Source: a phage
Reading direction: 5' to 3' (one strand)
Length of the DNA stretch: 64,000 bases
Sequence record: PZ019085.1
Shown: positions 2,506 through 57,908 of the stretch, in pieces
Position numbering within the stretch: the stretch's first letter is position 1
How the letters are laid out: each line of letters opens with the position of its first letter
Notes under the pieces: model-generated
The model's input: the letters and a program-made list of their open reading frames with translations, nothing else
Databases searched by the model: none
What the model was told of the DNA's origin: nothing
Translations under genes and position numbers: made by a program

Positions 2506-3168
2506 TTATTTAGCCCTTCCTAGTATTCGGATCGCTTGGTTGCATATAGCCGCTAAGCGATCTTCCTCAAGTATATTATTATTCCCCTTATACCAATACA
2601 TCGCCACAGTTCCAGCATAGATGTTATCCAAATTAAAGTATGGACAACTATACATATAAGAAAGTTCGGCAGTCTTAGATTTTGTAGGCAAAAATGCAAA
2701 TTCTGATTTAGATGAGAAATGACGGCCACTTAAATGAATTATATATTCATCGGCCGTTTTATCCACTGGGAATCCGCCAAGGGACTTTTCAGAAATTGTG
2801 CTAGGTAGTTTGCCTTCATAAGCTATAAGGTCGACAAAATAATTTAAGTTTTTAGGTCTGAAAGAATACACAGCACTAAAATCTGCACCAGATGAGATAT
2901 GAACTATTTGCAGTTGTTCTAGAGCCGCAGATTCAAAACGTAAAGCTCGTTCTTTTTGGATTATTTCAGTATAAGTATCATACTTAGCTCTTACATAATA
3001 ATCCAGCAAAATACTTCCTTTGTACCATATTAGTGCCATTAGGAACAAAAGAATAATTACCGCTACTCGGGACATTAAAACCTTTCCAGTAGCGTTATCT
3101 TTGAAAATACGATCTAGCAACCCAAATAGAATATCACTAAGCGAAAATGATACTTTTGGTGTTGCCAT
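2506..3168 (-). CDS. t: holin T (lysis inhibition-sensitive holin)
   Basis: 220 aa; N-terminal TM segment and periplasmic domain closely match T4 holin T (SFSLSDILFGLLDRIFKDNATGKV...ILGRAK). Confidence 0.9.
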   Translation of the reverse strand: MATPKVSFSLSDILFGLLDRIFKDNATGKVLMSRVAVIILLFLMALIWYKGSILLDYYVRAKYDTYTEIIQKERALRFESAALEQLQIVHISSGADFSAVYSFRPKNLNYFVDLIAYEGKLPSTISEKSLGGFPVDKTADEYIIHLSGRHFSSKSEFAFLPTKSKTAELSYMYSCPYFNLDNIYAGTVAMYWYKGNNNILEEDRLAAICNQAIRILGRAK

Positions 3169-3759: not shown

Positions 3760-6700
3760 TTATGCTAAACGAACGATATAGTTAAAAGCAACGTTTTTAA
3801 CAGTGTTTTCTGTATTTCCTGTGGCATTTACAGTTATTGTATGTCCATGGGAACCAATTGCAACAGTATGAGAATGAGCACCAATACCTACAGTATGAGA
3901 ATGAGCACCAATACCTACCGTATGAGCATGGTTACCTGTAGTGCTTGTAGTACCAGACCAACTATGAGTATGGTTACCTTCTGTTGACGACTTTGCAATA
4001 TATTGGCTTGTGCCAGGCACGACACCGTTGCTTAGGCCAAAACCAACAACCTGAGACCCACTAATTAGAGTAGCCCCATTAGGAAATATCCCGGTCGGTT
4101 GGTTACTAGGTCCTCTTGGGCCTGTCTGTGAGTGCTGGTGGTTACCAGCGGCACTAGTATTACCACTCACTGTATGGTTATGGTTACCAGTGGTATTACT
4201 GGTCTTAGTACCATAATCAAAGCTTGAAGTCGTTTTGCTACCGTAATCAAAACTTGACGTATTTTTAGTACCCAAATCTGTGCTTGATGCACTTGCACTA
4301 TGGCTATGTGACTTAACACCGTCTGCTTCTGTACTTAATACAGCACGCCCAGATGGTTTACCCTTGATAGTTTGACCACGCATATCAGGCAGTGCGCCGG
4401 AAGGATACACAGCAGCTAACTTAGGATACAAGTCAGCATCAAATGTTTGCCCTTCCATTATGGCATAACCTTCAGGAGGTGTATCAGTAGGCCAAGGAAT
4501 CGGAGCACCAATTGGATAACTCGACACAATATCCGTCTTAAGGTTATTTATTGTGGTATTCAAGTTAGCAAAATTACCAGAACCACCAGTAATATTACCA
4601 TCAGTTCCTAGTTGTGCATCTCCGACTTTAAGAGGTTTACTGACTTCCACGAAATTATCGCTTATAACAAGACCGTGTCCATACGATTGGCTATAAAGTG
4701 ATAAATCATTTCCAGAACCACCAAGACCAACATACCAAGATCTAGTTCCAGCTTTAGAACCCTGCAAATAATTAGCAGAAGAAGATGAAGGAGAATCTAG
4801 AGTAAGCGCTGCATTACGTTCATTAATAGTTACTGGACATATCATTTTAATAGTTTTAAGACTATTACTTACTTGTAATAATCCTGTACCGGATCCAGAA
4901 TCCCCCAAATGAACATCATGCGACATTTTAACTGTGCCGGTGTTCAGTTCTATTATCAATGGTCTAAGATTACTTATACCGCCTGATTCTCCAGCATCTT
5001 TAGGAGTAGGGATAATATAAAGATTACTTTCTGAACGACGGAAAATAGCCCCGTATTCAGCATTCCAAATTCTTAATGCATCAGCTGTTCCACCAATTTT
5101 AACTTGTCCAGTAATAGAAGAACCACCTTGTAAAAACAAGCCGTTCTTCATTGTAACATTGCCACCAAAAGAACCTGTACCGGAGGCACTTATATTACCA
5201 AGGCCTACGATATGGCCTGTTTCGACAGTTCCGTTAAATTTAAAGTTAACCGGACCTACTGTTTCACCAGAAGCCGGGTTGGTACGTTGAGCATAAAAAT
5301 AATAACCTTGTGAATCTGATACTTCAAATACAGTTTCTCTATTACCCTTTTCAGCGTTAAATGAGTTACCCCATGCTTTAATGGTTACAGTATTTTTATT
5401 CTGACCATTACGAGTACCTGCATCCCAGTTAATGGGTTTTGTCCCGTCAACACCTGTAGGCGCTTTAAATGACAAAGCATTGGTATTGTCATCACCTGAT
5501 AAAAATAACCCAGTACGCATTGAAATACGTTGGGTTGAGTCAAATGTACCATCTGCTCTAATAGCAACCTTATTGGAACTGGTTTTAATATCTAAAATGC
5601 CAGGCTCAACAAGAAGCCCATCACCCATACTAACGGACATACGGCCAGTGCCACGGAAATAGTGATACATCTTGGCATTGCTACTATAGCCAATATGAGT
5701 CTGACCGTCACCGTTATTATTACCATCAACATCGGTACGCGCAGTAAACATTGCTTGGTTGTTATTTGGGTAATCCCAAGTAGAACCAGAATCTCGACTA
5801 TAACCAACCATCAATTTTTTAGTACTGTTAATACCGTTATTAAGAATAGTGCCGGCAGAAATACCATTCGCAACTAAATCGATAACCCCGTCACGAACCC
5901 ATTTAATACCGGTATCATTGTCACCAATTGCAATACCTTTACCAAACGAAACCAATGGATAACGTCCTTGGTCACCAACATCAGCAAGACCTATACCTAT
6001 CGAATTAGCAACAGACATACGCCCATCTGTGGTATAAGACCATTGATAAACTTCAGCATTACGTCCCGTCCAATACGAAATATTCTGTGGTTTACCTGAA
6101 CGAGCATCAGCAACTTCATGGAAAATAGCAGAAGAAACATGTCCGCGGAATTTACGAAGGTAGTTTATACCATTAGTATCCAAATCTGTTTCGGTTGGAG
6201 TATACTGCCAAGTCGGTAGTGAAACTAAATCATATGCAGTATCAATATTAGTGTCCCAAGATTTAGTGCTCACATTGATATTTTTGGTAATAACTTTAGG
6301 ACCAATTAAAGAACCAGCTTTAGTTTCAATATTACTTTGAGTAACTAAATATCCATTAGATACTAATAAACTTCCGGAATCAACTTGAAAATTACCGTTT
6401 CGATTAAAAGTCCAGTATTTTGAAGTCCCGGTTTCATCAATATAATGGAATTTAAAACTACCTTCGTTTACTAATGTACCAGCAGAAAAAGTTCCATCTT
6501 TATAGCGTTGTTTAATCAGTGGATGGTATTCTGAAACAGAAGTAGTTGAACTTAAATCTGTAAAGATAGGGGCTTTATTCGAATGTTGGTTAGCCCAAGC
6601 GCCATTTCCAGTGGTTTTAGGTAAAAATTCAATGTATTTTCCTGCATAAACAAACTGATTTCCATTGAGATTATATGTGCCGTTTTGTAAATAATCACCA

Positions 6701-7630: not shown

Positions 7631-8758
7631 TTATTCTGATGCTTCTTTAAATTCTTGTCCAAATACCTTACCAGTATCAGTTGAAGATTGAGTAGGTAGT
7701 GTCATTATGTCTGGAGTATTTAAAGATTCTGAAACATAATTTACACGAATACCATTTATACCAAACTCGGCAGGTTTTGAAACGCTTCCATTACATGATA
7801 CTTCAGTGAATATAACGTTTCTTAATCCACCTTGCCCGACTGGAGCTGTACGATAACAATAAATCGTGAACCCGTCAGCACCAGCAGGAATTTCTATGTA
7901 GTCTTCATATATCTTCCATTCACCTGCACCCCCATCAAAGTTTATATCCTTAAACGAAATAGGTGAAGTAGAAGGAGATTTAAAGAAACGAATAGAAAGT
8001 CGTGTCGTCCCTTGTGCTAACAAATCGGCATCGGCCATTAGTTGGAATTTCATATAAAGGAAATCTCCAGGCTTCAATTTATACCCAGCGAGAGGTGTAA
8101 TAATGGATGTTGTAGGCATCCTTTTAATTTCATTATTAGTACCTCCAATGGCAGATAAAAATGTGTCTGTCGATTCGTACGTACGTCTAGGGAAGCCGGT
8201 AGCACCAATATCATCAATCGTGTCGTACACAACATCAAGTGGTGTACTATAGTCGGTTGAAGTTTTCTTATTACTATACTTAATATGTTCTAGTGCTATA
8301 GCATTCTTACCAGAAATATAAAATGCCGAATAGGAAATGTCCACTATATTTAAAACTTGTTGAGCTAATGGAATAACAGAACTCCCAGCTTTAGTAAACC
8401 ATGCGAGAACTTCAGGTGGAAAGTTTGTTTTAGCGTTAGTAACAAGAGCAAATATAAAATTTGAAGCATATGTGTCCATGTAAGTAACAAATGCACTTGA
8501 CGTGGCGTCGTTTTCAGTAGAGAAATTATATGACTTAGATTCAACTACTGCACCTGTTGTAGGATTTATTACACGAACGTTTAATCCAACGGAAAAAACC
8601 TGGGACCCAAGTGGATTATCTTGAAACTTAATATAAGCAGGAGATGTTGATAGCGGGCAAGATCCCGCTATGCTTAATTTAAATCGTACTGAATTGCTTT
8701 CCGATAAAAATGGCGTTTGGACGTATCCTTGTCCAAACTTAGCCATAAATTTTTCCAT
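7631..8758 (-). CDS. 35: gp35 long tail fibre hinge protein
   Basis: 375 aa (T4 about 372); synteny. Confidence 0.8.
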   Translation of the reverse strand: MEKFMAKFGQGYVQTPFLSESNSVRFKLSIAGSCPLSTSPAYIKFQDNPLGSQVFSVGLNVRVINPTTGAVVESKSYNFSTENDATSSAFVTYMDTYASNFIFALVTNAKTNFPPEVLAWFTKAGSSVIPLAQQVLNIVDISYSAFYISGKNAIALEHIKYSNKKTSTDYSTPLDVVYDTIDDIGATGFPRRTYESTDTFLSAIGGTNNEIKRMPTTSIITPLAGYKLKPGDFLYMKFQLMADADLLAQGTTRLSIRFFKSPSTSPISFKDINFDGGAGEWKIYEDYIEIPAGADGFTIYCYRTAPVGQGGLRNVIFTEVSCNGSVSKPAEFGINGIRVNYVSESLNTPDIMTLPTQSSTDTGKVFGQEFKEASE

Positions 8759-49641: not shown

Positions 49642-50772
49642 ATGGCTTTTACAGTTGATATAACTCCTAAAACACCTACTGGAGTTATAGATGAGACTAA
49701 GCAGTTTACTGCTACTCCCAGTGGTGAAACTGGAGGCGGAACTATTACATATGCTTGGGCTGTAGATGATGTTCCACAAGATGGAGCTGAAGCAACTTTT
49801 AGTTATGTACTAAAAGGACCTGCAGGTCAAAAGACTATTAAAGTAGTTGCAACAAATACAGTTCCAGAAGCTGAAGCTGAAACAGCAGAAATTACTACGA
49901 CTATCACGGTTAAAAATAAAACTCAGACAACTACCTTAGCTGTAACTCCTAATAGCCCTGCTGCTGGAGTAATTGGAACCCCAGTTCAATTTACTGCCGC
50001 CTTAGCTTCTCAACCATCAGGTGCATCTGCTACGTATCAGTGGTATGTAGATGGTTCTCCTGTGAGCGAAGCAACTAGTGCTACATTCAATTACACTCCT
50101 ACTACAAGCGGAGTTAAAAAAATCAAGTGTGTAGCGCAAGTAACAGCAACAGATTATGACGCAAAAACAGTTACTTCTAATGAAGTATCATTGACCGTTA
50201 ATAAGAAGACAATGAATCCACAGGTTACACTGACTCCTCCTTCTATTAACGTTCAGCAAGATGCTTCGGCTACATTTACTGCTAATGTTACTGGTGCACC
50301 TGACGCAGCACAAATTACTTACTCGTGGAAGAAAGATTCTTCTCCTGTAGAAGGGTCAACTAATGTATATACTGTTGATACCTCATCTATTGGAAGTCAA
50401 ACTATTGAAGTTACTGCAACTATTACTGCAACTGATTACGATAGCAAAACTATTACAGCAGAAGGTCAAGTCCAGGTAACTGATAAAGTTGCTCCAGAAC
50501 CAGAAGGTGAACTACCTTATGTTCATCCTCTTCCACATCGTACTTCAGCTTACATCTGGTGCGGATGGTGGGTTATGGATGAAATCCAAAAAATGACTGA
50601 AGAAGGTAAAGATTGGAAAACTGAAGATCCAGATAGTAAATACTACTTGCATCGTTACACTCTTCAGAAGATGATGAAAGACTATCCGGAAGTTGATGTT
50701 CAAGAATCACGTAATGGATACATCATCCATAAAACTGCTTTGGAAACTGGTATCATCTATACATATCCATAA
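49642..50772 (+). CDS. hoc: Hoc highly immunogenic outer capsid protein
   Basis: 376 aa as in T4; repeated Ig-like segments (TPTxGV...FTA). Confidence 0.9.
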   Translation: MAFTVDITPKTPTGVIDETKQFTATPSGETGGGTITYAWAVDDVPQDGAEATFSYVLKGPAGQKTIKVVATNTVPEAEAETAEITTTITVKNKTQTTTLAVTPNSPAAGVIGTPVQFTAALASQPSGASATYQWYVDGSPVSEATSATFNYTPTTSGVKKIKCVAQVTATDYDAKTVTSNEVSLTVNKKTMNPQVTLTPPSINVQQDASATFTANVTGAPDAAQITYSWKKDSSPVEGSTNVYTVDTSSIGSQTIEVTATITATDYDSKTITAEGQVQVTDKVAPEPEGELPYVHPLPHRTSAYIWCGWWVMDEIQKMTEEGKDWKTEDPDSKYYLHRYTLQKMMKDYPEVDVQESRNGYIIHKTALETGIIYTYP

Positions 50773-55756: not shown

Positions 55757-56569
55757 TTAGAAACGAGATGCGACTTTCGCATATAAACTTACATTAGAAT
55801 TCTGTTCTACCTGAGTTGTGGTAGTGTCAACTGCTTCGGCAACAAAATTAAGACCGGCAGCGTCATTGTCAACTGTATTTATACTTTCGGTAATAGCGGC
55901 TTCTTCTTTAGTAGAACCTTTAACCATTTCTACAATAGCAGTTAACTTAGTACCAAATGCGTCAGAATAATCCATACCTTCAACCAGGCCAATAACTTTT
56001 TCTTTCTGAGATTCAGTCAGGTCTTTTACGCTTTCATTAATAGCGGTTTCACGCTGAACGTAATTGATATATGCATCACGTTTGGTAACTTCTTCGAACA
56101 AACGAGCGGTTTCTTCTTTATGTTCGGCCAGCTCTTCTTCCATTTCTGCTACAACATCTACAGATTCTTCTGGAACAACAACGTTATGTTCAACAAACAG
56201 TTCTTTCAGACCACCAAGCATGGATTCGAACAAATCAGCTTTAATGCCTTTATCAACTGCGATTTGGTTTTCTGCGAGCCATTCTTTTGCAAGATGGTCT
56301 AGGAATTTAGAAGCTTGTTCGGCCAATTTTTTATCAGCTTTCTCTTCAGCATCTTCTTTAGCCTTTTCAACTTCTTCTTCGGCCTTTTCGGCGATGGCTT
56401 TGATATGAGATTCAGCCAGTTTGACTGCTTCCTGCTTAACGGTGGCTTCGAATACAGTGCTGAAATTAGCTTTAACGTCCGGAGACAGTTCTACTGATTC
56501 GAAAACACTATTAAGAGCAACTGAAGTCTCGATGTTCTGAGCTTCTTTCAAAAGTTGTTCTTTGATCAT
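55757..56569 (-). CDS. 22: gp22 prohead core scaffold protein
   Basis: 270 aa; Glu/Lys-rich helical; matches T4 gp22. Confidence 0.85.
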   Translation of the reverse strand: MIKEQLLKEAQNIETSVALNSVFESVELSPDVKANFSTVFEATVKQEAVKLAESHIKAIAEKAEEEVEKAKEDAEEKADKKLAEQASKFLDHLAKEWLAENQIAVDKGIKADLFESMLGGLKELFVEHNVVVPEESVDVVAEMEEELAEHKEETARLFEEVTKRDAYINYVQRETAINESVKDLTESQKEKVIGLVEGMDYSDAFGTKLTAIVEMVKGSTKEEAAITESINTVDNDAAGLNFVAEAVDTTTTQVEQNSNVSLYAKVASRF

Positions 56570-57669: not shown

Positions 57670-57908
57670 TATTCATCGTCCTCATCATCTTCGTCTTCGT
57701 CGTCATCGCCTTCATCGGCGTCGTCTTCCGAAGCTTTAGCTTTCTTTTCTTCTTCTTCAGGTTCTTCGCCTTCAATCAAAAATTGAGAAGCGATTTCTGC
57801 TTTGCGTGCTTCAATCAAACGAACCGTTTTTTCTGCCATTGCACTTTCAAAAAACTTTCGAGTAGCAACGAGGTCGTTTGATTTAATAGCTTGAATTAAA
57901 TCGTCCAT
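57669..57908 (-). CDS. 67: gp67 prohead core protein
   Basis: 79 aa with poly-acidic C-terminus. Confidence 0.7.

Follow-up and report, generated by a model that had tools for sequence, protein, structure and literature searches.

The exact 27-bp tandem repeat near the 3′ end of gene 37 in the window (the whole stretch of DNA analysed here, i.e., 64,000 nucleotides of the phage sequence record PZ019085.1) probably consists of two old metal-binding units of the long tail fibre tip, the first of which (u1) was converted from the second (u2) without any change in unit count, in a needle one layer longer than that of T4. Taken on its own, the repeat is routine: two metal-binding units of a known kind that have been homogenised, in a tail-fibre tip that has been studied in depth. 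The number of such units follows a simple rule, since across 160 distinct gp37/Stf tips the strand that runs out to the head carries as many outgoing units (1–4) as the strand that runs back carries returning 9-residue steps (1–4), with one true exception.

The window belongs to a Mosigvirus-type T-even phage (over 20 kb, it is 97.8% identical to Escherichia phage GADS24), and its minus-strand genes follow the T4 order (t, 38, 37, 36, 35, 34; see Table 1 for the features around the repeat). The gp37 protein contains the Pfam domains Collar, gp37_trimer and Gp34_trimer, and a Caudo_TAP chaperone gene (gp38/Tfa type) lies directly downstream of gene 37, as in T4 gp37-type tips; in close relatives, gene 38 is annotated as a tail fibre assembly protein. 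A distal fibre of the T2/T6 type, with a gp38 adhesin (~260 aa, glycine-rich motifs), does not fit the window, as gp38 has 183 aa here and is a Caudo_TAP chaperone. Elsewhere in the fibre genes, residues 58–128 of the gp35 homologue (7631–8758, minus strand) resemble ILEI (interleukin-like EMT inducer, Pfam PF15711), the match being borderline (30 bits vs. a cut-off of 27).

Table 1. Features of the tail fibre region in the window, with gp37 residue numbers (aa) where they apply.
Feature	Position	Strand	Basis or remark
t holin	2506-3168	minus	ORF position in T4 gene order
Gene 38, T4-type tail-fibre assembly chaperone, 183 aa	3178-3729	minus	Pfam Caudo_TAP PF02413, 24.8 bits, cut-off 22.1
Gene 37, long tail fibre distal subunit, 1044 aa	3760-6894	minus	ORF, translation, 2XGF match E = 2e-88
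Collar domain, aa 796-843	4366-4509	minus	Pfam PF07484, 44.1 bits, cut-off 24
HxH no. 1, HSH, aa 863-865	4300-4308	minus	motif position in translation
Outgoing-strand unit, aa 870-878, degenerate relative of Y units	4261-4287	minus	sequence comparison
Outgoing-strand unit Y1, aa 879-888, partner duplication	4231-4260	minus	differs from Y2 at 7/30 nt
Outgoing-strand unit Y2, aa 889-898	4201-4230	minus	T4 with only one such unit
HxH no. 2, HNH, aa 905-907	4174-4182	minus	motif position in translation
HxH no. 3, HQH, aa 919-921	4132-4140	minus	homologous to T4 H929/H931
Head, presumed receptor-binding, aa 922-974, flanked by HxH nos. 3 and 4	3973-4131	minus	hypervariable among relatives
HxH no. 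4, HTH, aa 975-977, first motif past head	3964-3972	minus	motif position in translation
HxH no. 5, HAH, aa 989-991; 3′ end = partial half copy counted by TRF	3922-3930	minus	TRF and motif scan
Returning-strand unit u1, VGIGAHSHT, aa 993-1001, HxH no. 6; overwritten copy	3892-3918	minus	identical to u2
Returning-strand unit u2, VGIGAHSHT, aa 1002-1010, HxH no. 7; donor copy	3865-3891	minus	27/27 match to the second unit in six relatives
Returning-strand unit u3, VAIGSHGHT, aa 1011-1019, HxH no. 8 (HGH 3841-3849); degenerate	3838-3864	minus	9 differences from u2

The last 287 residues of gp37 match the T4 tip 2xgf_A over chain residues 2–148 and 174–242 (phmmer against the PDB, E = 2.1e-88), PDB 2XGF being the structure of the T4 gp37 receptor-binding tip, attributed to Bartual et al. 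(2010). The two tips have in common the collar, the six-stranded needle, the head layout, HxH spacings of 14 and 9 residues, the conserved C-terminal 15 residues and a gp38-type chaperone gene downstream. In the six-stranded needle of T4, every chain extends as far as a small head and then turns back (PMC6957217, PMC12609058), and seven irons are coordinated along the axis by the HxH motifs, the iron-binding H929 and H931 being essential (PMC6957217). By homology with T4, HxH motifs from the three chains of an intertwined trimer would bring six histidines, in octahedral coordination, around one iron on the fibre axis.

Eight HxH motifs are found in the gp37 of the window (starting at residues 863, 905, 919, 975, 989, 998, 1007 and 1016), vs. 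seven in T4. The gaps between them (42, 14, 56, 14, 9, 9 and 9) include the 14- and 9-residue spacings of T4-type tips, on both strands, and the histidines of motifs 1, 2 and 6–8 are invariant in a 66-sequence alignment, those of motif 4 nearly so. Compared with 2XGF, the returning strand is longer by one 9-residue VGIGAHxHT unit, for a total of three 9-residue returning steps vs. two in T4, while the outgoing strand is longer by one 10-residue TSSFDYGxKT unit, which corresponds to a 10-residue gap in T4. This partner duplication on the outgoing strand (4201–4260) was absent from the preliminary description of the repeat, which had otherwise rightly located it within the metal-coordinating HxH region: the 27-bp units do align with the iron-binding needle of T4 gp37 (2XGF). 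The head of the window tip differs more deeply, in that it is unrelated to the T4 head and takes up 53 residues between HxH motifs 3 and 4, vs. 34 in T4. From the sequence, the eighth HxH site of the window gp37 may be expected to bind metal as well, and we predict a needle that exceeds that of T4 by one metal layer.

An AlphaFold2 monomer model computed from the 66-sequence alignment (pLDDT 54.8, pTM 0.18) is too poor to provide the strand register. Two contacts described in T4 gp37, in which G921 packs on F970 and G964 touches H929 (PMC6957217), imply an antiparallel register where i + j is ~1891–1893. Extrapolating from these two contacts, we infer that the outgoing residues 899–908 of T4 lie beside the returning residues 983–992 (SVGIGAHTHT), and STDLGTK beside AIGSHGH. 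One outgoing and one returning unit would form one needle layer with one metal site and, in the window, the extra 9-residue returning step would be offset by the extra 10-residue outgoing unit, so that the antiparallel strands would stay in register.

At the nucleotide level, positions 3864–3890 are the same as 3891–3917, letter for letter, as part of an exact self-match of 56 nt (3863–3918), which is the sole exact tandem duplication with a period of 12–100 within the 64 kb. This direct self-comparison bears out what had been noticed beforehand, i.e., a perfect 27-bp tandem duplication encoding VGIGAHSHT twice near the gp37 C-terminus, and the repeated peptide stretch was found at residues 989–1019. 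TRF returns a period-27 array at 3863–3930 (2.5 copies, 95% matches) with a score of 122, the highest in the whole window, the next best being 63. Upstream of u1 there is a partial copy, which ends in HAHT, and u3 matches u2 at 18 of the 27 positions. Other short tandem repeats of the window are imperfect (50411–50439, 56345–56389 and 57673–57728, with periods of 12, 21 and 15/21, respectively, and TRF scores of 51–63); the array at 56345 is located inside an ORF (55757–56569, minus strand). Among phage records, MN850651 (moskry), MN850590 (moha) and MN895438/NC_054932 (teqdroes) bear a “repeat_region” annotation over the 3′ end of gene 37.

How the two units came to be identical was studied by comparing the 3′ ends of gene 37 from 12 relatives with 83–97% identity (GADS24, pEK20, HY126, UGJNEcP1, F27, G2469, VIPECOMC06, APCEc01, C6, JK42, JM10 and slur14). 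Unit u1 differs from u2 at 4–7 nt in 11 of them (4–5 nt in pEK20, HY126, UGJNEcP1, APCEc01, VIPECOMC06 and JM10), at 2 nt in GADS24 and at none in the window, and the window unit is identical (27/27) to the u2 of six relatives. With respect to pEK20, the last 270 nt of the gene show 13 differences, of which five fall in u1 and change, all five, to the base found in u2, while the sequence is identical from u2 to the stop codon. The chance of 5 out of 13 differences clustering in u1 is 0.006, and that of obtaining exactly those five sites and bases is ~5e-8. The flanks of u1 are unchanged, the stretch just upstream (GCT...ACG) keeping its own bases, and u2 retains the sequence of the relatives’ unit 2, with no overwriting by its downstream paralogue u3. 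Altogether, the signature of gene conversion is present, i.e., a constant count and differences clustered in u1, all of them towards the paralogous u2.

Recombination is very frequent in T-even phages. If, in its course, adjacent repeats became misaligned, short-tract gene conversion between them would replace u1 by an exact copy of u2, the tract being essentially one unit long and the copy number left untouched. This is the most likely mechanism for the identity of u1 and u2, even though the end product would also fit a loss followed by a re-duplication. Moreover, the independently sequenced GADS24 has the same u1 as the window, while its u2 is different at only 2 synonymous sites; because it shares the converted u1, the overwrite probably predates the split of the window phage and GADS24. 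At the protein level, the change from VGIGAHTH(S/T) to VGIGAHSHT is conservative and probably near neutral. On the outgoing strand of C6 and JK42 (L089 and L090), only 2 of the 30 nt distinguish the two TSSFDYG units, vs. 5–7 nt in other relatives, and, given this near-identity, homogenisation seems to be active on the outgoing repeat in other lineages too.

The lock-step between the two strands was established on tips gathered from 80 IMG/VR loci, 120 database proteins and 80 bacterial-genome loci, which yielded 273 complete tips, 160 of them distinct; the protein database search reported 2,972 homologues, those returned being at most ~500 aa long and mostly fragments of prophage Stf. When the gap between the first and the second HxH is 22 residues, there is one trailing 9-residue step (6 distinct tips), whereas gaps of 31–32, 42 and 52 residues go with two (63 distinct tips), three (77) and four (12) such steps, respectively. 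Within the sample, a tip has 1–4 module pairs and 4–8 HxH motifs. Outgoing units are of two kinds, L (xTDLGTKx) and Y (xSFDYGxKx), of 10 residues each, and they combine in six architectures (L, LY, LYY, LLY, LYLY and LYYY), which points to several independent expansions that took different routes, with a counterpart on the other strand every time. Further, heads that are 82% identical can sit on stems of different length, both of which are matched. As the 160 tips collapse to 27 clusters at 70% identity, the lock-step counts lack phylogenetic independence, and linkage could account for some of the association between the strand counts. Common descent as the sole cause of the lock-step is weakened, though not eliminated, by the six architectures and by the similar heads on unequal stems; the rule is difficult to account for without a structural constraint.

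One tip that seems to break the rule, from Candidatus Erwinia dacicola (L120), is an exception in appearance only: the four units are kept, and a 2-residue deletion destroys the first returning HxH. The tip of E. coli ECGI0523 (L138) is damaged as well, with an L unit that is locally scrambled (SASDQYGFGPKPHR), consistent with a frameshift, and both genes probably belong to decaying prophages.

The sole true mismatch between the strands bears on the strongest alternative to gene conversion, i.e., a two-step slippage in which one returning unit was deleted and the survivor re-duplicated under selection to restore the strand register. We regard this scenario as unlikely. It would lead to the same end product, and the near-absolute lock-step rule implies selection against mismatch. 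Furthermore, a one-unit deletion variant does exist: L002 (positions 1501–2331 of IMGVR_UViG_3300030021_000020) is a TuIa-like gp37 with three outgoing units and two returning steps, the head of which is identical to that of TuIa (X55190) and which lacks exactly one 27-nt VGIGAH unit, its nearest phage relatives being all ~27 nt longer over the same span. However, L002 is a metagenome contig, so that it is either a real variant, in which case the mismatch may be tolerated, or possibly the product of an assembly collapse of the near-perfect repeat. In addition, none of the 12 close relatives showed an intermediate, and two rare events are needed where conversion needs one. On the same footing, it is doubtful that the needle is a modular ruler on which selection equalises the counts, the exact repeat being the scar of a compensatory re-duplication; were this true, the loss and regain of units would be an ongoing process that tunes the length of the fibre tip.

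Gene conversion at constant count agrees with the distribution of the units among relatives. Each of the 12 close relatives (12/12) has two VGIGAH units followed by VAIGSHGHT and two TSSFDYG units, i.e., equal counts on both strands, from which it follows that the copy number is old; likewise, the outgoing-strand duplication is old because Y1 and Y2 have diverged at 7/30 nt. Both extra units, returning and outgoing, are thus, by sequence comparison, old and common to the whole clade. In a spread sample of phage records, every alignment crossing the units is free of gaps and equal in span (at least 80% of the query is covered by 150 of the 196 matching phage records), while for T4 proper the alignment stops at a unit boundary. 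The TuIa gp37 (X55190), sequenced in 1990, already had two units, and lambda Stf (L093) has two, as in the window. At face value, the exact identity of the two units and the T4 tip with one unit fewer might suggest a recent gain by slippage, in which a new unit was added, changing the count and possibly affecting host range. This is very unlikely in view of the equal counts in the 12 relatives, in TuIa and in lambda Stf and of the ungapped phage alignments, to which must be added that the partner outgoing unit is old, so that a recent gain would require a mismatched ancestor. The preliminary description had taken the duplication for the trace of a recent slippage or recombination event; this holds for the identity of the units, which differ at 2–7 nt in the relatives, but not for a gain in copy number. 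The count, equal in all close relatives, does vary in the wider family, from 1 to 4.

Searches of IMG/VR contigs did not recover the exact 54-nt duplicated pair on any contig, and the perfectly identical unit pair is not widespread in IMG/VR. Likewise, three consecutive VGIGAHxHx units, searched as a degenerate pattern, gave no match in IMG/VR, and no further expansion of the VGIGAH type was seen there; the four-step tips are built with units of the VAIGxH type. As for a sequencing or assembly artefact, or an identity due to chance or codon preference, it is the least credible explanation: tandem repeats are sometimes mis-assembled, with nothing specific pointing to it here, but a 54-nt repeat is far below read length, the u1 shared with the independently sequenced GADS24 (2 synonymous differences in u2) led us to reject an assembly artefact, and the probability of five clustered changes, every one of them in the direction of the paralogue, is ~5e-8 by chance.

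The preliminary description had also proposed that a change in repeat number could alter the structure of the fibre tip and its host range. The second part of this proposal is weak because the unit count moves with the opposite-strand stem unit, so that it is the stem length that is altered, whereas the head is a separate hypervariable segment. Most likely, what depends on the repeat number is needle length, each module pair contributing one metal layer, and not receptor specificity. Read in this way, the lock-step rule amounts to a simple design rule for fibre tips of varied length (one unit more or fewer per strand), and it predicts eight irons per fibre for the clade of the window phage. 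It also gives a sequence-level basis to the published idea that di-histidine motifs scale in number with needle length. This idea comes from Bas63 (Felixounavirus), the fibre tips of which have six or seven di-histidine motifs, in a number proposed to be in proportion with how long the needle is (PMC12609058). Both the long and the short tail-fibre tips of Bas63 include a gp37-like needle with di-histidine motifs, but they are distant in sequence from the window tip, and PMC12609058 contains no paired-unit rule between strands. In the searchable literature, a limited search brought up no statement of the paired-unit rule.

Based on its sequence, we consider the window tip as a full member of the T4 gp37/lambda Stf tip family, which has been described before (PMC9659904). 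Within this family, the closest likeness is to the gp37 of TuIa (X55190) and of the Mosigvirus phages GADS24, pEK20, HY126 and APCEc01, which share the LYY outgoing architecture and the three returning steps, and in which the head is of the window type for GADS24, pEK20 and HY126 (that of APCEc01 differs). In these proteins, however, the VGIGAH units differ at 2–7 nt (4 in TuIa), and they are identical only in the window. The C-terminal tip of lambda (Ur-lambda) Stf and of lambdoid prophage Stf is homologous too, and the HxH spacing of lambda Stf (L093: 42, 14, 48, 14, 9, 9 and 9) follows the pattern of the window, but the N-terminal part of the fibre is another one, and many prophage forms either are of the 32/two-step type or are devoid of the 14-spaced HxH pair near the head. 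In our sample, identical lambda Stf sequences were found in low-coverage contigs (L093–L104, L109, L118 and L143), several of them ~48.5 kb long, from assemblies labelled with hosts such as Pseudomonas, Shewanella, Paenibacillus, Kitasatospora, Bradyrhizobium and Leeuwenhoekiella, among others. The lambda Stf of these assemblies is almost certainly due to contamination by lambda DNA.

Regarding the head, Tetart et al. are said to have proposed in 1998 that the His boxes of T-even gp37 and gp38, i.e., conserved GxHxH motifs flanking variable segments, are recombination sites. The window tip resembles these systems in that conserved GxHxH motifs flank variable segments, but they concern T2/T6-type fibres with a gp38 adhesin, whereas gp38 is a chaperone here, and what happened in u1 would be homogenisation within a gene and not an exchange of specificity. 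The head of the window (3973–4131) is near-unchanged in GADS24, pEK20, HY126, UGJNEcP1, F27, G2469, JK42, JM10 and slur14, which span two genera (Mosigvirus and Tequatrovirus), and a more diverged form of it is found in C6 (Dhakavirus). Finally, APCEc01 and VIPECOMC06 have a different head on the same stem, and these sequences clearly illustrate how heads are swapped between HxH flanks that are conserved.
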